Shown here: one piece after another, positions 3,989-59,402 of the stretch
Layout: each line of letters begins with the position of its first letter
How positions within the stretch are numbered: position 1 is the stretch's first letter
Origin: a bacterium
GTDB lineage: Bacteria > Patescibacteriota > Microgenomatia > UBA1406 > GWC2-37-13
Reading direction: 5' to 3'
Assembly (NCBI GenBank): GCA_021796235.1
Contig: JAJYOJ010000002.1
Coordinates: 34,660 to 98,659, forward strand
Length of the DNA: 64,000 nt
Made by a program: the position numbers and the translations under genes
Notes under the pieces: model-generated
The model's database searches: none
What the model was told of the DNA's origin: nothing
Seen by the model: the letters and a program-made list of their open reading frames with translations, nothing else

Positions 3989-4285
3989 ATGTACATCGGC
4001 CCATTTTACTTCGATACCAAAGAAATCTTCCTTATTTTAGCTGCGATTTTGGTAGGGCTTGCGCTTCAGTTTGGGTGGGGGATGTACTGGTTTGACAAAA
4101 GATCGCTTTTTACAATTATTATTTTAATGCTTGTCACAAAAGGTTTACTGCCCTCGATTCATAACGAAGCATTTTTTATCCTAGCGATAGTTACTATCTT
4201 TTTGACTCTTTACTTGCCGATTTTTCAGATAGTTCTTTTCTACTTCCTAAGTTTTGTTCTTTTCCGTCTTTTGAAAGTAATATAA
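3989..4285 (+). CDS. Small integral membrane protein (hypothetical)
   Basis: 98-aa ORF with three hydrophobic segments and no recognisable motif. Confidence 0.5.
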   Translation: MYIGPFYFDTKEIFLILAAILVGLALQFGWGMYWFDKRSLFTIIILMLVTKGLLPSIHNEAFFILAIVTIFLTLYLPIFQIVLFYFLSFVLFRLLKVI

Positions 4286-6641: not shown

Positions 6642-7277
6642 TTAATACTTCAGCTTCTCTAATTCTCCATCTTTTTCCTCATAAAGAGGGATGTTCTGTT
6701 CAAGCGCCCGTTGGGTGAACATGATGCCCCGGAGATGGTCGACTTCATGCTGGATTATGATTGAGTCAAATCCGCCAAACCACTGTTTTTTTACTTCTCC
6801 GGCCAAATCCTGATATTCAAGAAGAATTCTTCCGCTTCGGGTTATCGGACTCCAGATCCGAGGGATGGAAAGGCAACCTTCAAGCTTCTGGGGAGGTTTT
6901 TTCTTTTGCGACAGTTTCTGTCGCTCGTGCTGCTTCTCTTCTGCGAGGCTCTCCGCCCGGCGGGCGGAATCCGCTTCTCGAAGAGTTTCCTCACTCGCGA
7001 CACCTATTGTATCTTTTACTTGGTTTGAATGTTTTATTATTTTCGGATTTATGAAGACCTGAAGTTTCGCTTTCTTATTTTTTTTAACGATAAAAAGCGC
7101 GAGATCTTCGCCGACCTGAGGAGCTGCCAACCCGACGCCTTGCGGATCAACCTGCGCATCCAGAGTTTTTGCCATCTGATTGACCAACTCGACAATTTTT
7201 TTGTCAATTTTTTTTACAGGTTTTACAGTCGAGGTTAAAATTTTATTTGGAACTACGACTATCTTGAGCATAGGCAA
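6642..7277 (-). CDS. def: Peptide deformylase carrying an extra segment of roughly 40 aa
   Basis: Motifs GVGLAAPQVG, EGCLSIP and QHEVDHLRG are present. Motifs 1 and 2 are about 86 aa apart, versus about 45 in E. coli Def. The extra segment coincides with repeat copy 6916-7008. Confidence 0.9.
   Translation of the reverse strand: MPMLKIVVVPNKILTSTVKPVKKIDKKIVELVNQMAKTLDAQVDPQGVGLAAPQVGEDLALFIVKKNKKAKLQVFINPKIIKHSNQVKDTIGVASEETLREADSARRAESLAEEKQHERQKLSQKKKPPQKLEGCLSIPRIWSPITRSGRILLEYQDLAGEVKKQWFGGFDSIIIQHEVDHLRGIMFTQRALEQNIPLYEEKDGELEKLKY
6916..7008. repeat. Family-1 GC-rich palindromic element, copy A (inside def)
   Basis: About 79% identical (73/92 by hand alignment) to 8148-8238. The 14-nt left end and 18-nt right end are identical. 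Termini form an imperfect inverted repeat, tgtcgctcgtg/cactcgcgaca. Confidence 0.85.
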
Positions 7278-7839: not shown

Positions 7840-8709
7840 ATGAAACTGTCTTTATGCATAGCTACCTTTAATGAAGAAAAGAATATTCACTACCCATTAG
7901 ATTCAGCTTACGATTTAGCCGACGAAGTAATTATTGTGGATGGTGGATCAACCGACAAAACGGTTGAAGGTGCTAAAAAATATGGGAAAAAAATCAGCGT
8001 AATTATTGCCGACAACCCCGCCATGTTTCATAAGAATAAGGAGAAGGCGATTGAGGCGGCAAAAGGGGAGTGGATTTTACAGCTGGATGCAGATGAAGCT
8101 TTGTCAGAAGAGTTAAAAAAAGAAATCGAGCAAATTATTGCGATAGATTCTGTCGCTCGTGATGCTTCTCTCCTGCGAGCCTCTCCTATGAAAACCGGAA
8201 TCCGGTTCTCGGAGAGTCATCTCACTCGCGACACCTATCGCAACAATGTTGCTTACTGGGTTCCCCGCAAGAATTGGTTTTTAAGTCGATTCCTCACAAA
8301 AGGTGGTCAGTATCCCGACTACACGATAAGACTTTACAAAAACGGCGTTGCTCATTTTCCCTGTAAATCAGTCCATGAAAACGTTGATGTCACAGGTACG
8401 GTTGGTTATCTGAAAAATCCAATTCTCCATTATGCCGATCCGAATTTCTCCCGTTATTTGTTGCGTTGGGACCGTTATAACAATCTTGAGGCAGAAATAC
8501 TCAAAAAAAAGATCAAAGATCAAAAATCAAAGATCAAAAATTTGCAATATTTTTTTGATTATTTGCTGATCAGACCGCCGGTTACTTTTTTTTCTATGTA
8601 TTTCAGGCACCTAGGATTAGTTGATGGGTTGCCGGGTTTCATTTTTGCCTTATTTTCCTCAATTCGATTTTGGGCAATCTATGTTAAAACTATACAACAC
8701 ACTAACTAG
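7840..8709 (+). CDS. Family 2 glycosyltransferase carrying an in-frame repeat insertion
   Basis: LSLCIATFNEEKNI..., IIVDGGSTDKT and LQLDADE are GT2 signatures. The segment DSVARDASLLRASPMKTGIRFSESHLTRDTY is encoded by repeat copy 8148-8238. Confidence 0.85.
   Translation: MKLSLCIATFNEEKNIHYPLDSAYDLADEVIIVDGGSTDKTVEGAKKYGKKISVIIADNPAMFHKNKEKAIEAAKGEWILQLDADEALSEELKKEIEQIIAIDSVARDASLLRASPMKTGIRFSESHLTRDTYRNNVAYWVPRKNWFLSRFLTKGGQYPDYTIRLYKNGVAHFPCKSVHENVDVTGTVGYLKNPILHYADPNFSRYLLRWDRYNNLEAEILKKKIKDQKSKIKNLQYFFDYLLIRPPVTFFSMYFRHLGLVDGLPGFIFALFSSIRFWAIYVKTIQHTN
8148..8238. repeat. Family-1 GC-rich palindromic element, copy B (inside GT2 gene)
   Basis: See copy A. It has the same + strand orientation, but the host gene is on the opposite strand relative to def. 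Confidence 0.85.
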
Positions 8710-16269: not shown

Positions 16270-17115
16270 CTACTGGCAGGCAGACCAACCGCTAAGCGGT
16301 GTTTCGGTGGCATGTGCCCAACCGAATTGAACCGCTTGCGCGATACGGAAGCAAAACTCCGTATTGGCCCACTCATTCTTAGTGATAGCGACAAAGCCGT
16401 CGGTGACGGTTGTGTCGAGAGTACCAGGACCCGCAACTGCCTTGTAGACGCCATTTGACGTACCATCTACGTTAAAACCGCCAACAATCGCTGTGGTTCC
16501 AGTGAGCAATGGGATTACCCAATGCTTGGTGTGGTCATTCAAGTCTGCACAGACTGTTCCTTGCGGGACATTCTTGCAGGGTACACCGGTTTCTAGATAC
16601 ACCGATGGATGACCGATCTCTGGTTGGGGCGGTAAGTTGTAAGGCGCCACGTTAGTCGTGATTGGCGACGGTGCGGGTTGGTTCCCAAAGTTCGAGTCGG
16701 ACAGTCCAGCAATTTCCTGTGGCCAAGGGTTGATTACCCCACTTGTGACGTTGCCGCCAACCGGTGTGTTGTGAATAAGACAGTTTCCGCCATCGCACAT
16801 TTGACCGCTGTCTAGGACGATCTTCCATCCAAAAACAGTGGACCCTGCATCAAAATGCAAACTGCGATTTTGACCAGTTTCCATGCGTTGTGGCGAAGAC
16901 GGCGTCGGTACGACGGGTGGCGCTACAGGCGGTGCAGGTGCGGGCGGCGCAACGGGCGCTGGTGTTGCAATGGGCGGCGTAGGCCAGTGGAACGCGAGAA
17001 CAGCATAGAAGCCGCTCACAGCGAGATAAACGATGGCCGCAACTGCGAGTACGACAACGACAGCGAGTGCTACCCAAAGTAGCAACCGCGCAATGGTTCC
17101 AAGAACTCCAAACAT
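16270..17115 (-). CDS. GC-rich island: membrane-anchored protein with Pro-rich linker and Cys-containing ectodomain (hypothetical)
   Basis: 281 aa. N-terminal TM region LLLWVALAVVVVLAVAAIVYLAVSGFYAVLAF, linker PPIATPAPVAPPAPAPPVAPPVVPTP. RBS GAGGAGG is upstream of the ATG at 17115. Confidence 0.7.
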   Translation of the reverse strand: MFGVLGTIARLLLWVALAVVVVLAVAAIVYLAVSGFYAVLAFHWPTPPIATPAPVAPPAPAPPVAPPVVPTPSSPQRMETGQNRSLHFDAGSTVFGWKIVLDSGQMCDGGNCLIHNTPVGGNVTSGVINPWPQEIAGLSDSNFGNQPAPSPITTNVAPYNLPPQPEIGHPSVYLETGVPCKNVPQGTVCADLNDHTKHWVIPLLTGTTAIVGGFNVDGTSNGVYKAVAGPGTLDTTVTDGFVAITKNEWANTEFCFRIAQAVQFGWAHATETPLSGWSACQ

Positions 17116-17152
17116 TCTAGGCCTCCTCGTACAGGATTTACGTACTCACGAC

Positions 17153-17461
17153 TCACGACTTTCCCGTCAGTTTGTCCCAGAAATCGCGGGGCGATCCAAT
17201 CCAATCCTTGCGGGATTGGGGAGCCGGCGACGGGGTGACGGGCGGGGTCGGGACAACGGGCGGGACGGGGACGAGCGTGCTGGGAGCACCACATTTGCTG
17301 CAGAAGTTCGCAGAGTACCGATTTTTGGTTCCGCAGTTAGCACACGTCCAGTCAACGGATTTTGCAACTCCGCACTCCGAGCAGAACTTAGCGCTCATAG
17401 GCGCTTTGTGACCGTTTGAACAGGTCCAAGTTCTACCACCTTTCTTCTTTGTAATAGCCAT
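17153..17461 (-). CDS. GC-rich island: double zinc-ribbon protein with Pro-rich tail
   Basis: 102 aa. CSNGH...CSECG and CANCG...CSKCG form two CxxC-type ribbon pairs, followed by PVPPVVPTPPVTPSPAP. RBS AAGGAGG is upstream. Confidence 0.75.
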   Translation of the reverse strand: MAITKKKGGRTWTCSNGHKAPMSAKFCSECGVAKSVDWTCANCGTKNRYSANFCSKCGAPSTLVPVPPVVPTPPVTPSPAPQSRKDWIGSPRDFWDKLTGKS

Positions 17462-26564: not shown

Positions 26565-28436
26565 ATGCGTAAAGCCTTAACTTTGGTTGTTTTATTCCTG
26601 GTTTTAAGTTTATGCGGGAATGTTTGGGTTGCAACCAAATCCTATTATTTTCCCAAAGTTAGCGTTAATGTTCAAATAAATAAAGACGGTAGTTTTTTAG
26701 TACGCGAAGAAAGACAGGCGTATTTTTCAGGCTCATATAGCCGTATTTACTGGGATATTCCACTTAAGTCTGGTCAAGGAATAGAAGACGTTAATTTTTT
26801 TGAGGAAAATAATGGTCAAGAAACCCCTTACAACAAGCTTCAAACTACAGATACTAGTCGGCCCGTAAGTAATTATGCGGTTGTCCAATATTATGGTTAT
26901 ACTCACATAGAGGCTTATTTTAGCGCTAATAACGAATACAAAACTTTTTTACTTACCTACAAAGTTTTGGGCGGAATTACTAAATACAAAGATGTAGCTG
27001 ATTTTTATTGGCAGATCATAGGTTCAGGCTGGGCTGCAAAAACAGATTTAGTTAAGACGACAGTCAGACTTCCAAATAAAGTACAGATAAGTGACATTAA
27101 GGTCTGGGGACATGGTCCATTAAATGGAAGAGCTAAGATAGTTGACGGTCAGACTGCAACATTTAGCGCCAACAATCTTGCGCAAAATAAATTTTTTGAA
27201 ATCAGGGTTGTTTTCCCTGCAAATTTGATAGACGGTATGCCTAAAGGTGAAGATGGTCTTGCTAAAATCCAGACAGAAGAATTAAATTTTCAAAATAAAA
27301 CAAAGTTAGAGAATCAACTTAAAGTTTTTGGGCTTTTTGGATTGGGAATAGGAGTAATTCTTTGGATAGCGTTCTCGTTTATTATCTGGGAGAAGGAGGG
27401 AAAAGAATATAAAGTAGTTGATGTCCCCGATCATCTGCCGTTTCCACCCAGCCAGATTTCTCCAGCGCTTGTTGAAACCTTGGTCAGTCAAGAACAAAGG
27501 GTGACTCCGAATTCGTTTTCTGCAACGATCTTGTATCTTGGAAAAAAACACGTGCTTCGGATCGAAGAGCAACCTTATGATAGTGGAGGATTCTTAGGTA
27601 TCGGCGGCGGGAGAAAATATAGATATATCCTTCATCTATACCGCGACGTCAATGATTTCAAGAAGCTTTCACCAGCCGAGCTCTTGGTTTTTGAATTTAT
27701 TGAAGGTTTTTGCACCGATGGGAAAACTGTTTCGTTTGATGATATGAAGGACCAAATGAAAGATCAACCAGTTTCCACTTATGATTTTTTCAAATCCTGG
27801 AAAAATGAAGTTAAAAAAGAGGCAGACGAGGCTAATTTCGTTGAGGATAAAAGCAAAAAATGGCAGATGATTTTTACCGTTTCAACGGTTTTATTTATCA
27901 TTGGTTTTTTAACTGCTTTAAGTTACATTCTAGGCTTTCCGATGCCTATTGGCGGCCTCTTTAGTGTATATATTTGGTCCGGAATTTTTTTAGGTGCATT
28001 TTTATATTTTATTGGACGAATTTTTTTACGCTGGTCAAAATCCGCTGAAGTTGAGGCAAAAAAATGGTTGGCATTCAAAAAATTTATAAGTAATATCGCG
28101 AGTTTTAAAGACGAACTTCCCCAAGCTGTTGTCATCTGGGAAGATATACTGATTTATGGCACGGCATTAGGCGTCGCTAAGAAGGTGATTCAAAATCTGC
28201 CTTTAATTTTAGCCTATGCTCATACAACAACTTATCCGTACTGGTATTATTCAAGCGGCGGGACCGGTTCGTTTACCGGTTCGTCGGGACTGGGGCTGGA
28301 TTTTTCAACCAGCTTGTCGCAAAGTCTTACCTCTTTGAATACGGCATTTACATCTTCATTTAGCAGCGGTGCGGGAGGCGGATTTTCGGGGGGCGGCGGG
28401 GGAGGTGGAGGCGGCGGGGGAGGCGGAGCAGATTAA
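26565..28436 (+). CDS. DUF2207-family membrane protein with poly-Gly C-terminal tail
   Basis: Signal peptide, a large ectodomain, several TM helices and a terminal GGGFSGGGGGGGGGGGGGAD, typical of DUF2207. Confidence 0.65.
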   Translation: MRKALTLVVLFLVLSLCGNVWVATKSYYFPKVSVNVQINKDGSFLVREERQAYFSGSYSRIYWDIPLKSGQGIEDVNFFEENNGQETPYNKLQTTDTSRPVSNYAVVQYYGYTHIEAYFSANNEYKTFLLTYKVLGGITKYKDVADFYWQIIGSGWAAKTDLVKTTVRLPNKVQISDIKVWGHGPLNGRAKIVDGQTATFSANNLAQNKFFEIRVVFPANLIDGMPKGEDGLAKIQTEELNFQNKTKLENQLKVFGLFGLGIGVILWIAFSFIIWEKEGKEYKVVDVPDHLPFPPSQISPALVETLVSQEQRVTPNSFSATILYLGKKHVLRIEEQPYDSGGFLGIGGGRKYRYILHLYRDVNDFKKLSPAELLVFEFIEGFCTDGKTVSFDDMKDQMKDQPVSTYDFFKSWKNEVKKEADEANFVEDKSKKWQMIFTVSTVLFIIGFLTALSYILGFPMPIGGLFSVYIWSGIFLGAFLYFIGRIFLRWSKSAEVEAKKWLAFKKFISNIASFKDELPQAVVIWEDILIYGTALGVAKKVIQNLPLILAYAHTTTYPYWYYSSGGTGSFTGSSGLGLDFSTSLSQSLTSLNTAFTSSFSSGAGGGFSGGGGGGGGGGGGGAD

Positions 28437-28495
28437 AAAACCAGATCAATAAGCTGAAGCAAAGTTAAAGGATATTTTCGTGCTGGACAACGAAA

Positions 28496-53417: not shown

Positions 53418-54207
53418 ATTCATAGAAAAAAAAGCTGTAAAGATTGAGAAGCGGCTGCGTTTCGCTTTATCCTCTTTGTGTTTGGCGCTCCTACTGCTTT
53501 TTTCAACTTTCTTCTATTTTGATAAGGCTTTTATTTTTATTCCATTATTGGTGGTAACGACATATGTACTAACGTATTTTTCGGTTTTGGAAGGGATTCA
53601 TGACATTGAATGGTTTACCTTATTTTTTATGCCGATCGTTGTCTCTGTCTCATTTTATCTTTTCTACTTTCTTTTTCCGGTAAGGTGGTTGACGAGATTA
53701 CCATTTATCGTGATTTATGGAATTTCGACATACGCAATTCTTTTAACGGCAAATATTTTTAACATCGGGGTAGAGAAGAGCCTTCAACTTTATCGAGCTG
53801 CCTTTTCCGTTAATTTTTTTTATCAAACGGTGTGCAGTTTTTTACTTTTTAATATTATTTTATTTTTTCGTCTAAATTTCTTATACAACGCAATTTTGGC
53901 GGGGGGAATAGGGTTTTTGTTGGATATTCATCTGTTTTGGACATTAAAGCTCGATAAAACAATTGAGAAGCGACTTTTACTTTTTGCTTTCCTTATCGGT
54001 AGCGTAATTTTTGAAGCAGCATCTCTAATGTCGTTTGTGCCCATTAACTCCACAATATTTTCTCTTTTTTTGACCGGGATCTTATATTCCCTAAGCGGGC
54101 TAAGTTACAGCTACCTTGACCAACGGTTATTTAAAGAAACGATTCGTGAATATTTAATTGTGCTCGGATTTATTTTTGTAATCACATTATTATCTATAAG
54201 TTGGTAA
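53392..54207 (+). CDS. Polytopic membrane protein (hypothetical)
   Basis: About 8 hydrophobic helices. No motif recognised. Confidence 0.55.
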   Translation: MKQFNHLLKFIEKKAVKIEKRLRFALSSLCLALLLLFSTFFYFDKAFIFIPLLVVTTYVLTYFSVLEGIHDIEWFTLFFMPIVVSVSFYLFYFLFPVRWLTRLPFIVIYGISTYAILLTANIFNIGVEKSLQLYRAAFSVNFFYQTVCSFLLFNIILFFRLNFLYNAILAGGIGFLLDIHLFWTLKLDKTIEKRLLLFAFLIGSVIFEAASLMSFVPINSTIFSLFLTGILYSLSGLSYSYLDQRLFKETIREYLIVLGFIFVITLLSISW

Positions 54208-54381
54208 GTTCTTTATGTAAATCTGCCCGGCGGCGAGTAGAGAACAGGGTAGAGGCCCAGACTAGATGGGTAAGGGAAGTGTACGGACGTGAAGTATTTA
54301 TCCTATAGTATATTAAATACTATAGGGTATTAAATAAATGTAAGAATCCGGCTCCAAACTTAATATTATTAGTTTTAAATC

Positions 54382-54682
54382 GAGGCTAATTTAATAAGTT
54401 TAGTAAGCTACTACGCTCCAAAGTTGAGTATCACTCTATGTGGATAACTGCCAGGATTTGAGGCTAAAAATTAGAATTTAGATCTGTATGACGCTCTAAA
54501 TTACATTCATTCTTACATTGTTTAGCGTTCTAATTTATTAAAATTTAGCCTCAAAAATTATATTTTAGACCAATATTATCTTCTAAACTTAATAGGGTTC
54601 TATTTCTCGTGCGTTCCTTATGTGCTATTTCTTAATAATTTAGCCTCGAAATCGATAGTTTAGAGCAATTATATGTTCTAAA
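54382..54682. repeat. Degenerate array of four 41-42-bp units, each ending in a 24-bp TTTAGN-N12-NCYAAA palindrome
   Basis: The units are 54382-54422, 54460-54500, 54546-54587 and 54641-54682. Each has a core gaggcta (units 1-2) or its complement tagcctc (units 3-4) plus an A/T tract, followed by tttag(a/t)-N12-tc(t/c)aaa. Confidence 0.7.
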
Positions 54683-55259
54683 TATAACGACGTTTCTAGC
54701 CTCAATTTAGCCTCAAAAAAAGAGTGCGAGAGAGGTTAAAAAAAGGTTGAAATAACTGAGTTATAACCGGAGAAAATAAAGTTTATTCACGTCATGTTAA
54801 GAGAAGAGAAAGATTCTGTTCTCTCCTAAAATGTAGTAATAAAAAATAAAAATACCCCAATCGGCAGCCGGCTAAAAAATGAAATACAACTCCGGGAGCA
54901 GAAGCATGTATAACGTCGTAAATTGTATCTTTTACGACGTCAACCGTGGCTAGTTCCAGGCGAGTGGTTTAAAATTAGAAATTAATAATTTTAAATTTAT
55001 TTAAAAATAATTCATTTCTTTCTTTTCTCCCCTAATTTATCTCTCTGTTATCTTCAGAGATCCGGGGTCCTTTTTAGCCCTTTAAAACCTGCTAACTCTC
55101 CCCCGGATTCCGCCTTTTTTAGCCTTATAACAATCTAATTCTTCCCTATCCCCTAAAGAATTGCTAGATTGGGGAGTGCTTAAAAATAAGCCAACATAAT
55201 TATTGGAATGATAATCAGGCACTTGATACGGGCTAACTTTAATATATAATCTATCTATC

Positions 55260-56189
55260 GTGCAGGAAGGATACAGTCCAGTAAAACAGGCTAATTTGAA
55301 ACAAGGTTTAATCGACAGAGCATTAAATATTATTGCCAATTCAGTTGAGATGGATTTCCCTCAGGATACATTACGTCAGACCGCTCTTCAAATAGCCTCC
55401 GGTATTCCGGTCATACTTGTTTCCAATCATCAAAGTCATGTTGACGTAATGCCTTTAGCGGTTATTGCTAATCAGGTCAGAAGAGCCGCCAATGATTATA
55501 TCTCTACCGGTAAATACCCTCGTAAAAAGGCATTTTCTCATTTCTTATGTCCGATGGCCTCTTCGGTAGTGACTGGTGGACAGACGCAGGACATCACAGC
55601 CGGATACATCAATACCAGAGATTGGTTATTAAAAAACGGAATCGTGACAGTGCCGGTCACTCGTGACAGAGACATAAAATATTATGGAGGTCAAGGACTT
55701 CCGCCAACAATCGATTCTATGAGAGCTCTTTTAACCGCTTTTAAAGATGGTCACGGATTAGCTATAACTATTGCCGGTACCGTCGAGGAAGGCAGGCGGA
55801 AAAAAGGTGGTCGCTCGGGAAAAAGAATCGGACTGAAGAAGCTCTCTAGCAAAAATTTGCTGACTGAAACTGTCGTGAGACAACATGCGGCCGGTATTAA
55901 TACGTTGATTGTCCCAATTGCCATTTCGGGCACATACCTCTTATTTGATCCCGATGAAAGAAAAGTTACTTTATCTTCGGTTAGAACTTTAGTTAGAAAT
56001 TTAGTCCCTTTCTCTTTAACCAAAGCTACGACTGTTAAAGTAGCACAACCGATAATGACCGAAGAACTATGGGCAGATGCACCGGAAGATGAGGCAGATC
56101 TTCATACTTTTTTGAATAACCGTTTATTGGTAATTATTGCTAGCAAATTACCTCCTGAAGCACGGGGTGAATTCGCCAACATGGTTTGA
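55260..56189 (+). CDS. PlsC/LPLAT-family acyltransferase
   Basis: The NHQSHVD (HX4D) motif and a later AGTVEEG block. GTG start; an alternative ATG is at 55350. Confidence 0.65.
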   Translation: MQEGYSPVKQANLKQGLIDRALNIIANSVEMDFPQDTLRQTALQIASGIPVILVSNHQSHVDVMPLAVIANQVRRAANDYISTGKYPRKKAFSHFLCPMASSVVTGGQTQDITAGYINTRDWLLKNGIVTVPVTRDRDIKYYGGQGLPPTIDSMRALLTAFKDGHGLAITIAGTVEEGRRKKGGRSGKRIGLKKLSSKNLLTETVVRQHAAGINTLIVPIAISGTYLLFDPDERKVTLSSVRTLVRNLVPFSLTKATTVKVAQPIMTEELWADAPEDEADLHTFLNNRLLVIIASKLPPEARGEFANMV

Positions 56190-56207: not shown

Positions 56208-57308
56208 TTACACTCCTCTTCGCCAAGCTAAATATTTTTCGTAAAGATAAGTTAAATAATATTTTGGTGAGATAATGAAATCCTGCGTTGCTAAATAATC
56301 GAGCTGTTTTCCGCCGAAACCTTGTTTAAAGAGAGTTAAACCAGTCCAAGCTTTAGGAGTTCGACCCGGTTCGTGTATACCCCAAAAGTTATAAAGTTTA
56401 CAACCACGTTTTTTGGCTTCCTTGATTGCTTCCCACTGAAGCAAATACGGAACCGGAATTTTGCTGTGGATCGAGGCGCCCTGATGATAAAAGGAAGTTG
56501 TTTTTGTAAAAATAATTAAAGCCGAAGCTAAGGCGGTGGGTGTCGAGGCGTCAGGGCTCCTGGCAGCGCGCAGATCAGGCGATATTCGCCGCCTGTCAAG
56601 CACTGACGGGAAAGACGAAGAGACAGGTCCAGCCGCCCCAGTCCTTACTTTACCAAATAAAAACAAGGCATTTCCGGTTTTATTAAACGCGTCAAACTCG
56701 TTTCTGATGAATTCTTCTGAAAACGGAATAAAAGCTTCACGTTTAGTCGTTTCCTCATAGATTTTGTAAAAATCATGGACGGCATTTTTGTCGGTTCTTT
56801 TTTCTATAGTTACTCCATCACGGTCGATCCTTCTAATTAGATAGCGGGTTGTCTTTCGCATGTCTGCCAAAAGTTCCTCTTCTGATTTTTCAAGCGGCAG
56901 GACCCACATCCGTTCGGCATGCATATATATTGGTCCTTCTTTAAACCCTAAGGCTTTAAAAATTTTTCTATTTGTTTCCGTAGCTTCGAGATTAGGCGCA
57001 ATACGAATGAACGAATAGTTTTCCTCCCGAGCCAGTTTTAAAAGATAGTTTTTGAAAGCGCTAAAACAATTCTGAATTGTTAGCGGTCCGTATGGAACAA
57101 ACAAAAAATTGCCCCGCCGAGTTTTCATCTTTTCAACCAAAGCGATGCCAATGAGCTTGTTTTTGTCATAGATTCCCAATCGTAATATTTCGTAGCCTTG
57201 AAGTTTTTCGAACTCTCCCCATTCCCAAGACTGAAGGAATATAGGTGATCCGGCTTCTTCAAAAAAATTTTGCCAGATTTTTTTATCGGTAACCTCTTTG
57301 ATTTTCAT
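56208..57308 (-). CDS. FemAB-family peptidoglycan interpeptide-bridge aminoacyltransferase with an in-frame GC-rich insertion
   Basis: N-terminal WQNFFEEAGSPIFLQSWEWGEFEK and C-terminal YNFWGI are family-like. The segment RTGAAGPVSSSFPSVLDRRRISPDLRAARSPDASTPTALAS is encoded by repeat 56538-56639. Confidence 0.7.
   Translation of the reverse strand: MKIKEVTDKKIWQNFFEEAGSPIFLQSWEWGEFEKLQGYEILRLGIYDKNKLIGIALVEKMKTRRGNFLFVPYGPLTIQNCFSAFKNYLLKLAREENYSFIRIAPNLEATETNRKIFKALGFKEGPIYMHAERMWVLPLEKSEEELLADMRKTTRYLIRRIDRDGVTIEKRTDKNAVHDFYKIYEETTKREAFIPFSEEFIRNEFDAFNKTGNALFLFGKVRTGAAGPVSSSFPSVLDRRRISPDLRAARSPDASTPTALASALIIFTKTTSFYHQGASIHSKIPVPYLLQWEAIKEAKKRGCKLYNFWGIHEPGRTPKAWTGLTLFKQGFGGKQLDYLATQDFIISPKYYLTYLYEKYLAWRRGV
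56538..56639. repeat. Family-2 GC-rich element, copy A (inside the FemAB gene)
   Basis: The head gggtgtcgaggcgtcagggctcctggcagcgcgca matches the rc of 58527-58561 at 29/36. The tails gacgggaa...cagg(t/a)cc also match. Confidence 0.75.
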
Positions 57309-58474
57309 AAGACGTCGTTTAATGTTTTTACTACCTTTTCAGCTTCTTTGAGCGAAATATTCGTCGGTAAATTAATTATTTTTTTGCTTAGTTCTTCAGC
57401 GACAGGACAGTTGCCTTTTTTATACCCTACCCTATCGAGATTTAGGGCAATAGGAGCTACAACTTGCTCATACCAATTACCTAAAAAGATATTCTTTTTA
57501 GCAAGCTTTGCTATTATCTGATTGCGATTTGCTATTAACAGTGGGTATCTAAGCAGGGCCCCTTCATAGCTATTGCCAGAAAAATAATGATTGTAAAGGC
57601 TGACAGTTCGGGCTCTTTGTTTTTGTGCACGTGATAATTTATCCAACTGATTTAGTAAAAGGATTGCAAAAGCGTTTGGATAGGCCTTATCGAGCCAGTG
57701 GTCAAAATTCCCACCCTTTTCTTTAGTGGTTATTTCAGGAATTAGAAAGTTTAATTTAAGTAATATTTTATGAATTATTTTTCCCAAATAAATATAATAG
57801 GTTTTTTTAATAAAATAGGTAAGGGGTTTATAAAGGAGAGCCCGGAAGATAAATAATTTAGAGGGCATATTCAAGTTTATCGTTAGCGGTTTTTGTGAAA
57901 CAACTGCTCCACCAAACACCGAGGAAATAGCCTTCGAACGCCCAAAAGACATTAATAAATATGAATTCCCGATTTGCGATTTACGATCTGCGATTTTATC
58001 TTTATTATATCCGTGCGCTATATCTTCAATTAGCACCAAGTTATGCTTTTTGACAACGGAGTGTATTTCCGCTCTTTGGGCCGGTGTCAAACCAAAAGTA
58101 TGTTGGAGAATGACTACTCTTGAGCTTGGGCCTATCCGTCTTTCCAGTTCTATAGGGTTCATTGAAAAAGTTTTTTTCTCGATATCAACGTAAACGGCCT
58201 TTAAGCTATTTGCTAGTATCGGCAGTACAACGGCTTCGCAAGTAAAAGCCTGAATCAAAATTTCACTATTTTTTGGCAGTCTCATAGTTTTAAGGAGGTG
58301 AAACAAAGCAGATCTACCGGTTAAAAAGAGAGAAACATTAAGATTTGGGAAAAGAACCTTTTTGAGCTCATTTAACTCTTTTCCCGTCTTCCATCGCCAC
58401 GGTTGCCAGAGAAGCTTAAGGCTTAATAACGCGTCATCCAGCTCTTCATTTGGAGCAAAATCTGTGCTGATCAT
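57305..58474 (-). CDS. DegT/DnrJ/EryC1/StrS-family PLP-dependent aminotransferase
   Basis: IEDIAHG..., the SFGRSKAIS lysine motif and a length of about 389 aa from MISTDF at 58474. The track N-terminal extension runs through repeat copy B. Confidence 0.7.
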   Translation of the reverse strand: MISTDFAPNEELDDALLSLKLLWQPWRWKTGKELNELKKVLFPNLNVSLFLTGRSALFHLLKTMRLPKNSEILIQAFTCEAVVLPILANSLKAVYVDIEKKTFSMNPIELERRIGPSSRVVILQHTFGLTPAQRAEIHSVVKKHNLVLIEDIAHGYNKDKIADRKSQIGNSYLLMSFGRSKAISSVFGGAVVSQKPLTINLNMPSKLFIFRALLYKPLTYFIKKTYYIYLGKIIHKILLKLNFLIPEITTKEKGGNFDHWLDKAYPNAFAILLLNQLDKLSRAQKQRARTVSLYNHYFSGNSYEGALLRYPLLIANRNQIIAKLAKKNIFLGNWYEQVVAPIALNLDRVGYKKGNCPVAEELSKKIINLPTNISLKEAEKVVKTLNDVL

Positions 58475-58482
58475 AAGTTTTA

Positions 58483-58561
58483 GGGTCCTGCCGCGGCTCT
58501 CATTCCCGTCGATCCTCACTTCCGTTGCGCGCTGCCGGGATCCCTTTCGCCCGCGCCACCC
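58483..58561. repeat. Family-2 GC-rich element, copy B (inverted; fills the TGase-DegT intergenic spacer)
   Basis: The rc reads gggtggcgcgggcgaaagggatcccggcagcgcgcaacggaagtgaggatcgacgggaatgagagccgcggcaggaccc. See copy A. Confidence 0.75.
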
Positions 58562-58562
58562 T

Positions 58563-59402
58563 TCAAATATATACAGGGCTCTGAAACAAATCAATTTTAT
58601 AATTTTTAGTTCCAATATTTAAGTCGAAGTCTTCCCCATAAGAAAGTACAAGCCGGTCATCCGGGATTATTCCAAAGTCTCCTTGGGAGCTTGTAAAATT
58701 ATTAACTCGCTGCCATTCGATCGAAGGATCAAGGGGAAACCAGGAGTCATCCGGTAATAATATTTCAACCCAGACGTGCATGGATAGTGAACGGAATGTC
58801 AATGAATCGATTCTTAATTTTGTCAGAAAAAGTTTGGAAAGGCTTGGTCGTAAAAGATATCCTACAACTAGCCGAGACGGTATGTTGACCGATTGTAAAA
58901 GTGATAATAAAAGAGTTGAAAAGCCACCACAATCTGTTGTCCTCTCCCTCAATGCCTGTTTATATGTATAAAGTGCTTTGTTGGGTTTGCCGTAAGTCAA
59001 GTACGTTAAAACAAATCGATAGATGTTTTTTATTGTCTTAGCGAGCGATTTTTCTTCCCCGACAATTTTTTTTGCTAAACGTTGTATTTGCACATCCTTA
59101 CCATTAATAAACCGATCGGGATTTGTAATTCTTGAATATTCGTTTATTTTAAATGTTGAGTCAATCGTCTGATTGATCGAGATAGCTTTGTGATTAAAAT
59201 TGATGCAGGCATAATGTTTAACGTCGTTTAATGTAAAAGATACGATATCATTCCCCCACTTGTTTTCTTTGAATCTTTTATACTTTCTTGGTTCAATTTC
59301 CAAACTCGTTATTTTTTGATACTGATTGGTTTGAGGAAGTGAAAACAAGACATACTCCCCGGCTTTTTTAGGAAGCTCGAGTCTAAATTCTAGTTGAGAC
59401 AT
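58563..59402 (-). CDS. Transglutaminase-like cysteine protease-fold protein
   Basis: TTDCGGFSTLLLSLLQSVNIPSRLVVGY ... HVWVEILL...WFPLDPS gives a Cys-His-Asp arrangement. Confidence 0.8.
   Translation of the reverse strand: MSQLEFRLELPKKAGEYVLFSLPQTNQYQKITSLEIEPRKYKRFKENKWGNDIVSFTLNDVKHYACINFNHKAISINQTIDSTFKINEYSRITNPDRFINGKDVQIQRLAKKIVGEEKSLAKTIKNIYRFVLTYLTYGKPNKALYTYKQALRERTTDCGGFSTLLLSLLQSVNIPSRLVVGYLLRPSLSKLFLTKLRIDSLTFRSLSMHVWVEILLPDDSWFPLDPSIEWQRVNNFTSSQGDFGIIPDDRLVLSYGEDFDLNIGTKNYKIDLFQSPVYI

Follow-up and report, generated by a model that had tools for sequence, protein, structure and literature searches.

The 64,000-nucleotide (nt) stretch of DNA analysed here (contig JAJYOJ010000002.1, positions 34,660 to 98,659), which we call the window, comes from a bacterium of the Patescibacteriota (Microgenomatia) and contains two short GC-rich segments, one lying in frame inside a FemAB-family gene and the other, in inverted orientation, in the next intergenic spacer. 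These segments, copy A and copy B, raise the question of whether they belong to one family of mobile elements and, if so, how such an element can persist within a protein-coding gene. The original prediction, made from the letters of the window, took them to be a second GC-rich repeat family beside another one, 'family 1'. We conclude that copies A and B are diverged members of one repeat family, which very probably consists of GC-rich mobile DNA elements that are not autonomous and whose genic copies persist in frame. The two copies and the gene that holds the first of them are as follows.

Copy A, 56532..56639, minus strand: diverged family member in the same sense as the FemAB mRNA, with its core at 56538-56633 and paired flanks GGCGGC / ACCGCC.
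Copy B, 58483..58561, plus strand: 79-nt intergenic family member, antisense to the surrounding operon.
FemAB-family gene, 56208..57308, minus strand: host of copy A (Pfam FemAB, E 1.3e-34, matching in two stretches around the insert).

The similarity between the two copies was reproduced as it had been described. The head matched at 29 of 36 positions between 56538-56639 (plus strand) and the reverse complement of 58483-58561, with one gap, and its Smith-Waterman score of 35 was reached by none of 1000 dinucleotide shuffles (15.8 +/- 2.4). The tail motifs GACGGGAA and CAGG[T/A]CC were present in both segments, the 11-mer GGCAGCGCGCA occurred in the window solely in copies A and B, and both patches were GC-rich relative to their surroundings (0.70-0.74 GC in 50-nt windows; window, 39% GC). 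A lack of statistical support for the alignment had been named as the finding that would speak against the relationship; besides a score above those of all shuffles, we observed that an independent hidden Markov model (HMM), built from 65 copies of other genomes with the window copies left out, matched both: copy B with E 1.2e-13 and 45.8 bits, copy A with E 3.4e-11 and 37.9 bits. These scores lie in the lowest 5% of the family, and comparison with the median of 73 bits for the copies in loci indicates that the window copies are genuine but diverged; judged by this divergence, they look old.

Neither this HMM, at E <= 10, nor a whole-window covariance-model scan with filters off found any copy in the window beyond A and B. 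A GC-rich patch at 54221-54290, proposed as a possible third copy, was missed by both models, and its nearest match (54273-54361; E 1.2, AT-rich) was not credible. The strongest GC islands of the window, 16870-17316 and 28348-28449, were rejected as elements because they are low-complexity coding sequence, the former being Pro/Ala/Val-rich segments of two small proteins and the latter a poly-Gly C-terminal tail.

The extent of the family outside the window was evaluated by scanning a collection of species-representative genomes with a 22-base pattern, TGCGCGCTGNCNGGANCCCTN{8,13}CACCC, taken from four known copies. This exact-pattern scan yielded at least 119 stretches, and the family counts given below are counts among the matches listed. 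Those with a named lineage were almost always assigned to Roizman-, Levy-, Curtiss- or Blackburnbacteria or to the 'Patescibacteria group', and about 40 further loci carried other labels, mostly 'uncultured Gammaproteobacteria'. On contigs labelled 'uncultured Gammaproteobacteria', 'Nanoarchaeia', 'Saccharimonadales' or 'Chlamydiae' (L008, L013, L019, L022 and about 35 others; L037; L090), the copies that we examined were indistinguishable from Microgenomates copies, and these labels may be wrong. The family is specific to Microgenomates, a class-level group of the candidate phyla radiation (CPR)/Patescibacteria. Carriage by phages was rejected because a scan of 2.9 million viral contigs gave 0 pattern matches. 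The searchable full texts contained no account of elements like these in CPR bacteria, an absence that holds for those texts only.

The matches have in common two blocks that lie outside the search pattern, GGGTCCTG and TTTCCCTCCCGCCAGTGCTC, and the family consensus reads X-GGGTCCTGYC-NNNNN-TTTCCCTCCCGCCAGTGCTC-[variable hairpin]-TGCGCGCTGTCGGGAGCCCTTCC-N'N'N'N'N'-GYCACCC-X'. Element length ranges from 75 to about 190 nt and varies with the apical module and with the optional presence of a further hairpin; the elements have 58.7% GC and the rest of the loci 40.7%. The copies outside the window support the proposal of a family of short, structured, GC-rich elements present in an AT-rich genome, including its coding sequence. 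Their host genes include those for LeuRS, Obg, RadA, CarB, GT2, GT39 and FemAB proteins; the hosts are housekeeping genes that are normally single-copy. One LeuRS gene (L099:2072-5071) carries four in-frame copies and one Obg gene (L060:4697-6157) three, and different genomes have a copy at one shared site in LeuRS (L017/L019) and in Obg (L057/L060).

When 67 aligned copies were folded with RNAalifold, a rod-like hairpin with three helices was obtained. P1 is formed by GGGT/ACCC plus flanking pairs and is followed by a conserved internal loop; P2 is a freely covarying helix of 5-7 bp followed by the conserved loops UUUCCCU / CCCUUCC; and P3, a nearly invariant helix (CCCGCCAGUGC / GCGCUGUCGGG), leads into an exchangeable apical hairpin module. 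Of the cells counted at the predicted pairs, 90.3% were paired, compared with 79.7% after the columns had been shuffled and 34-49% with slid partners, and double-change cells numbered 229 (86.5 +/- 8.2 in shuffles), with 17-28 compensatory cells at each of five P2 pairs. The great excess of G.T pairs (156) over A.C pairs (22) indicates that pairing is maintained on the strand reading GGGTCC...CACCC. Single-sequence folding of the window copies was not significant relative to shuffles (z about -1.7 to +0.5), so that the structural support comes solely from family covariation. The extra hairpin centre attributed to copy A stood in part: an apical hairpin module, GGCGAATATCGCC, is present and is shared with the copy of L065, but the proposed pairing 'cgtcag...ctgacg' corresponds to no helix of the family consensus structure. 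Known structured RNA families, ribozymes and introns included, were rejected for lack of an Rfam 15 match: at the gathering score only tRNAs, and no element, were matched in the window or in 10 loci, and at E <= 10 the window, the loci and one canonical copy gave chance-level matches only.

The relation of the elements to reading frames was read straight from the DNA, so that gene calling introduced no bias, and a copy was counted as genic if at least 60 open codons lay on both flanks. Both flanks were open in the same frame for 64 of 116 copies, and one ambiguous copy had them in different frames; by chance, one copy in three would be expected in frame. Among the same-sense genic copies (n=48), 45 were in one phase, which encodes the peptide xGPVSSFPPASA...LRAVGSPSSxATP, and the antisense genic copies (n=18) encode a mostly Gly/Ser/Arg-rich peptide. 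Other phases are often stop-free; what the unused frames would encode is rich in Cys or Leu, or is interrupted by a stop. Copy A would be translated in the usual frame of the family (GPVSSSFPSVL...LRAARSPDASTPT), and the FemAB frame runs through it as ...VRTGAAGPVSSSFPSVLDRRRISPDLRAARSPDASTPTALAS..., confirming the claim that it sits inside this gene without breaking the frame, as an insert at about residues 222-257. These frames suggest that the genic element is translated as an extra protein loop. That 64 of the 65 genic copies keep the frame and lack stops does not fit an excised intervening sequence or a translational bypass element, for either of which length would be free of the frame and stops would be tolerated. 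About 40% of the copies are intergenic. As the covariation in P2 alters the encoded residues, the constraint acts on pairing and not on the peptide.

The FemAB loop that holds copy A illustrates how such insertions are accommodated. Named protein homologues of this gene product are from Roizmanbacteria and have a basic length of about 335-340 residues; 23 of 120 carry 5-53 extra residues at the loop of copy A (other loops are variable too), and about 80% of the orthologues have no insert there. In the contigs of two insert-bearing homologues the gene order TGase-DegT-FemAB (TGase, transglutaminase-like) is kept, and comparison of the DNA shows the inserts of these related contigs to be homologous to copy A; orthologues with an insert of the family are 57-64% identical. 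At this loop we found copies in sense (P0001, P0004, P0014, P0052/89/111) as well as antisense orientation (P0002, P0010, P0030, P0082), at differing offsets from the conserved FLFGK motif. The presence of both orientations at differing offsets in a variable loop argues for repeated insertion and not for a conserved family feature. That the peptide might be a conserved FemAB feature of unrelated lineages had been named as counting against an insertion; the peptide does recur elsewhere, but again in both orientations and with differing offsets.

Structural comparison placed the insert at a tolerant position. In an AlphaFold2 model of the FemAB protein (mean predicted local distance difference test score, pLDDT, 87.2; predicted template modelling score 0.85), the insert forms a loop between beta-strands 214-221 and 258-267, with pLDDT 45-66 over residues 221-260. 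The alignment to Staphylococcus aureus FemX (6snr) breaks at the insert (query 23-217 to chain 22-230, query 255-351 to chain 299-397), and FemX has about 70 extra residues at that position, which we take to be the coiled-coil arm of Fem proteins. Copy A is a survivor in a hypervariable FemAB loop. Other insert peptides (..SRQA, ..LPAGR..) recur at several loops of the FemAB homologues P0011, P0020, P0037, P0059 and P0104; they resemble what a GC-rich palindrome of the GCCTGCCGGCAGGC type would encode, and their recurrence suggests that further element families may exist in these genomes.

Copy B lies between the two genes upstream of FemAB.

DegT/DnrJ/EryC1-family aminotransferase gene, 57305..58474, minus strand: true ATG start at 58472-58474.
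TGase-like gene, 58563..59402, minus strand: stop codon at 58563-58565.

The spacer from the TGase-like stop to the DegT ATG comprises 88 nt (58475-58562), and copy B, which had been said to fill it exactly, leaves 1 nt on the TGase side and 8 nt on the DegT side. In two related contigs the element is absent from this junction, where the TGase stop and the DegT start overlap by 4 nt (L004) or lie 12 nt apart (L001), which indicates that copy B is an insertion into the TGase/DegT junction. In two related contigs, the first residue of the DegT orthologue is the one that aligns with the ATG, and the longer open reading frame (ORF) that runs through copy B from a TTG (57305..58615) is therefore spurious, in agreement with the original prediction. 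As an intergenic survivor, copy B has forced apart the TGase-like and DegT genes. Roles as a terminator or promoter were rejected, since no terminator-like sequence signature was found at copy B and the 2 promoter-like sites in 56300-58800 are fewer than the shuffle mean of 5.0.

Evidence for mobility came from other genomes. The Roizmanbacteria metagenome-assembled genome JACOYT01 contains 14 pattern-matching copies. The 76-nt cores of three of them are 100% identical and so are the 89-nt cores of two others, although these copies lie at unrelated loci, some in genes and some in spacers; within this genome, P2 variants and apical modules are recombined in a mix-and-match fashion. The claim that such elements are actively colonising the genome of the window is not borne out, because the window copies are diverged and look old, and it is in JACOYT01 that identical copies point to recent activity. 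At a loop of GT2 glycosyltransferases, 120 orthologues displayed sense copies, antisense copies, 'family 1' in both orientations, relics (GPVSNS, TGPVSD) and empty loops of 5-7 residues. The patterns at the FemAB and GT2 loops together indicate repeated independent insertions, filtered by tolerance and followed by decay. The loops concerned in FemAB, GT2 and GT39 are hypervariable in length.

The sequences flanking the copies fall into two classes of about equal size. Class I copies (C|GGGT...ACCC|G) have copy-specific perfect flanks of 5-13 nt that are inverted and not direct, and the young JACOYT01 copies have inverted flanks of 6-13 nt. Flanks of at least 5 nt were observed in 27 of 115 copies, and essentially none were expected when flanks were re-paired at random. 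Class II copies have the form GCTCG|...|CTCGC, with CTCG exact on both sides in 13 copies. At the termini themselves (GGGTCCTG.../...CCACCC), the pairing extends over only 4 conserved nt plus variable pairs. Two paralogous copies differ at two arm positions, with both differences compensated. The GT39 and GT2 loops vary too much for orthologue alignments to show firmly whether the arms bring extra residues, but at GT2 the two arms occupy native-looking positions.

In the most probable reading, copies of this family move to new genomic sites, and intergenic ones persist freely. Genic copies would persist only if the net insertion kept the frame, was stop-free and fell in a tolerant surface loop; the element would then be translated as 25-60 extra residues, mostly in one orientation and frame and hence as a Gly/Pro/Ser/Ala-rich, probably disordered peptide. 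Maintenance of the helices would reflect the need to stay mobilisable, and the excess of G.T over A.C pairs may mean that a trans-acting enzyme recognises one folded strand, possibly of single-stranded DNA. Strong covariation with conserved internal loops, the strand-specific G.U excess (156 versus 22) and the sense bias in genes (48 versus 18) are also what one would expect of a structured RNA with a host or self-serving function, such as a removed intervening sequence, a processing or stability element, or an antisense or regulatory RNA, with the DNA copies being secondary; copies A and B, as reverse complements on one polycistronic transcript, could then pair across DegT. We nevertheless consider such a role improbable, because only about a third of excised elements would be expected to lie in frame, whereas 64 genic copies preserve the frame and 1 does not, with no in-frame stops and one preferred frame. 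Moreover, 18 genic copies are antisense, no Rfam family was matched even at E <= 10, the window copies fold no better than shuffles, and there is no terminator at copy B.

Selection might instead act on the peptide GPVSSFPPASA...LRAVGSPSS as a functional protein module spread by recombination, making the hairpin incidental. Although the peptide occurs in the same frame in 45 of 48 same-sense genic copies and is recognisable across genera, P2 covariation changes residues on both sides yet keeps the base pairs, about 40% of copies lie outside genes, the peptide of antisense copies is unrelated, and the copy A segment is modelled as a low-confidence loop, so that we give this explanation hardly any credence. 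It is also very improbable that a single ancient insertion into FemAB was inherited vertically and gave rise to copy B by local duplication or gene conversion, with no mobility at all. Such a history would account for the same family at the same loop in orthologues 57-64% identical, and for two window copies 1.9 kb apart with no others in 64 kb; it does not account for both orientations and differing offsets at the loop, for the roughly 80% of orthologues without an insert, for the occurrence of the family at more than 100 unrelated loci with identical copies in unrelated genes, or for the closer similarity of copy B in some blocks to L004-type copies than to copy A. Intein, integron attC and REP readings were dropped on size, context and motifs.

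Several points weigh against a mobile DNA family. The sampling of copies was biased by the exact pattern in the 3' block, the translation of genic copies is read from reading frames only, and the covariation, G.U asymmetry and same-sense bias would fit an RNA-level role as well. With two old copies in 64 kb, activity in the lineage of the window is unproven. Neither a transposase nor a parent element was found, and none of the 123 pattern matches was a longer, gene-bearing version; an autonomous form of this kind was rejected, since the matches are complete short elements except for one partial copy (L009). No clear target-site duplication was found, and the CTCG flank of class II copies may be part of the element rather than a duplication. 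Two metagenome flank-gap-flank scans detected no empty alleles of the young L014 copy or of the L004/L005 FemAB copy, and near-identical strains yielded no pair of empty and filled alleles. Finally, copy-specific perfect inverted flanks are not predicted by ordinary cut-and-paste transposition.

With respect to these flanks, we tentatively suggest, as a possibility that is itself somewhat unlikely, that the element uses or triggers an undescribed hairpin-centred insertion chemistry. Integration might take place at the apex of existing palindromes, which would explain both nesting and the exchangeable apical module, and several copies do sit in the middle of a palindrome. Alternatively, the target could undergo inverted duplication at insertion, or template switching, a process proposed for coding palindromes (PMC6649704), could replace one flank by a sequence complementary to the other. 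Each of these options would account for the unique perfect inverted flanks of 6-13 nt on young copies, even in conserved coding sequence. If this were true, a strand-specific, hairpin-targeting mobile element would be remodelling essential proteins across a whole CPR class.

A third palindromic repeat was observed at some of the loci.

Third palindromic repeat, GCTCGATACCGAATTT...GGTAGATCGAC | centre | GTCGATCTACC...GCAAAAAATTGGTATCTTCGC: L043:2252-2351, L081:4964-5077, L010:7406-7506, L014:~577-680, L016:~2799-2890, L055:~4038-4120.

Its centre is an element of the present family (family 2) in several copies and other sequence in others, giving nested 'Russian-doll' palindromes.

The original prediction had set this family beside a separate 'family 1', which is represented in the window by two copies.

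'Family 1' copy, 8138..8240, plus strand: in frame and sense in a GT2 glycosyltransferase gene, 7840..8709.
'Family 1' copy, 6906..7010, plus strand: in frame and antisense in a 211-residue ORF, 6642..7277 (minus strand), which motifs read by eye suggest to be a peptide deformylase.

The two copies are 88-90% identical over aligned blocks and form strong hairpins (z -3.6 to -6.6). Their termini (ATTCTGTCGC...GCGACACCTAT) resemble those of family 2, the family-2 covariance model gave a weak match to the copy at 8138..8240 (16.8 bits, E 0.014), and the GT2 loop that holds this copy carries family-2 copies in other genomes. Among the GT2 homologues, P0242 and P0244 have 'family 1' at the same loop in opposite orientations, and P0265 and P0283 are hybrid-like, combining a family-2 interior with a family-1-like end ('DRIYR'). 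From the termini, the weak model match and the hybrids, 'family 1' looks like a distant relative of family 2 and not a separate invention.

Two other kinds of repeat were seen in the window. Direct repeats of 66 nt that are 74% identical and 95 nt apart (54527-54592 and 54622-54687) lie in AT-rich DNA between one ORF that ends at 54207 and another that starts at 55260, and runs of the heptamer GCGATTT (AATTTGCGATTTGCGATTTGCGATTTG) occur at 1485-1520 and at 57964-57999, the second of these inside the DegT gene.

CPR/Patescibacteria genomes are read almost wholly by automated annotation, which gives elements of this kind practical consequences. The 25-60 added residues would inflate LeuRS, Obg, RadA, CarB and cell-wall enzymes, possibly several times per gene, and the element creates spurious ORF extensions, as in DegT here, and perturbs alignments used for phylogenomics and structure prediction. 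The many independent insertions in the same loops would amount to a map, made by nature, of where essential enzymes tolerate insertions, and the conserved fold and inverted flanks make the mechanism of mobilisation a tractable question. The family would be the second large natural case, after Rickettsia, of selfish DNA inside translated genes, in hosts that are free-living or episymbiotic ultra-small bacteria with genomes of about 1 Mb.

Translational bypass elements, known from T4 gene 60 and as the 'byp' elements of Magnusiomyces mitochondria, are likewise short, GC-rich, structured mobile inserts in coding regions of an AT-rich genome, but they contain stops and their length is not bound to multiples of three, whereas 64 of 65 copies are in frame and stop-free here. 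The GC clusters of yeast mitochondria are at times tolerated in coding sequence, as in var1. Like our element, they are mobile palindromic units that are rich in GC and reside in a very AT-rich genome (PMC4478555), but they are organellar, much shorter, different in sequence and mostly intergenic. The coding palindromes of Nematomorpha mitochondria are inverted repeats within translated genes with both arms in native coding sequence, for which maintenance by template switching or repeat conversion was proposed (PMC6649704); these processes could explain the copy-specific arms of our element, although the nematomorph repeats are perfect palindromes of host sequence and do not form a dispersed family with a conserved core. 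The repetitive extragenic palindromes (REP) and bacterial interspersed mosaic elements (BIME) associated with RAYT are palindromes that lie outside genes, measure 20-40 nt and bear a GTAG or CGTC tag (PMC3733652), unlike elements of 75-190 nt that are more than half intragenic and have GGGT at the 5' end. Bacterial miniature inverted-repeat transposable elements such as ERIC, BOX and Correia share with our element small size, lack of autonomy, structure, multiple copies and occasional translational fusions with ORFs (PMC10969869), but the in-frame genic fraction is far higher here, at about 55%. Moreover, we found neither long terminal inverted repeats matching a known insertion sequence nor a consistent target-site duplication.

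The closest known system is that of the Rickettsia palindromic elements (RPE; Ogata et al. 2000), which PMC10969869 summarises as palindromic repeats with dispersed copies; roughly half sit in frame within housekeeping ORFs, and every family encodes its own peptide. As in that account, our element is a short, hairpin-forming palindromic repeat with many dispersed copies in a small AT-rich genome, and it resembles RPE in repetition (at least 119 stretches), hairpin (a covarying rod), length (75-176 nt in these stretches) and in-frame fusion (64 versus 1). About half of the copies lie in frame in unrelated housekeeping ORFs, at tolerant protein positions (as seen for FemAB) and with a recognisable peptide, and no transposase is known for either. 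RPE are elements of Alphaproteobacteria and ours of Patescibacteria; because host phylum and base composition differ, we claim a likeness in lifestyle and not homology. Compared with the RPE described there, which are about 100-150 nt long, our element spans 75-190 nt, is very GC-rich relative to its host, is modular with an exchangeable apical hairpin, extends across several order- or family-level lineages, and has copy-specific inverted flanks and up to four copies per essential gene. By this analogy, the family represented by copies A and B would be an RPE lifestyle in a new phylum.

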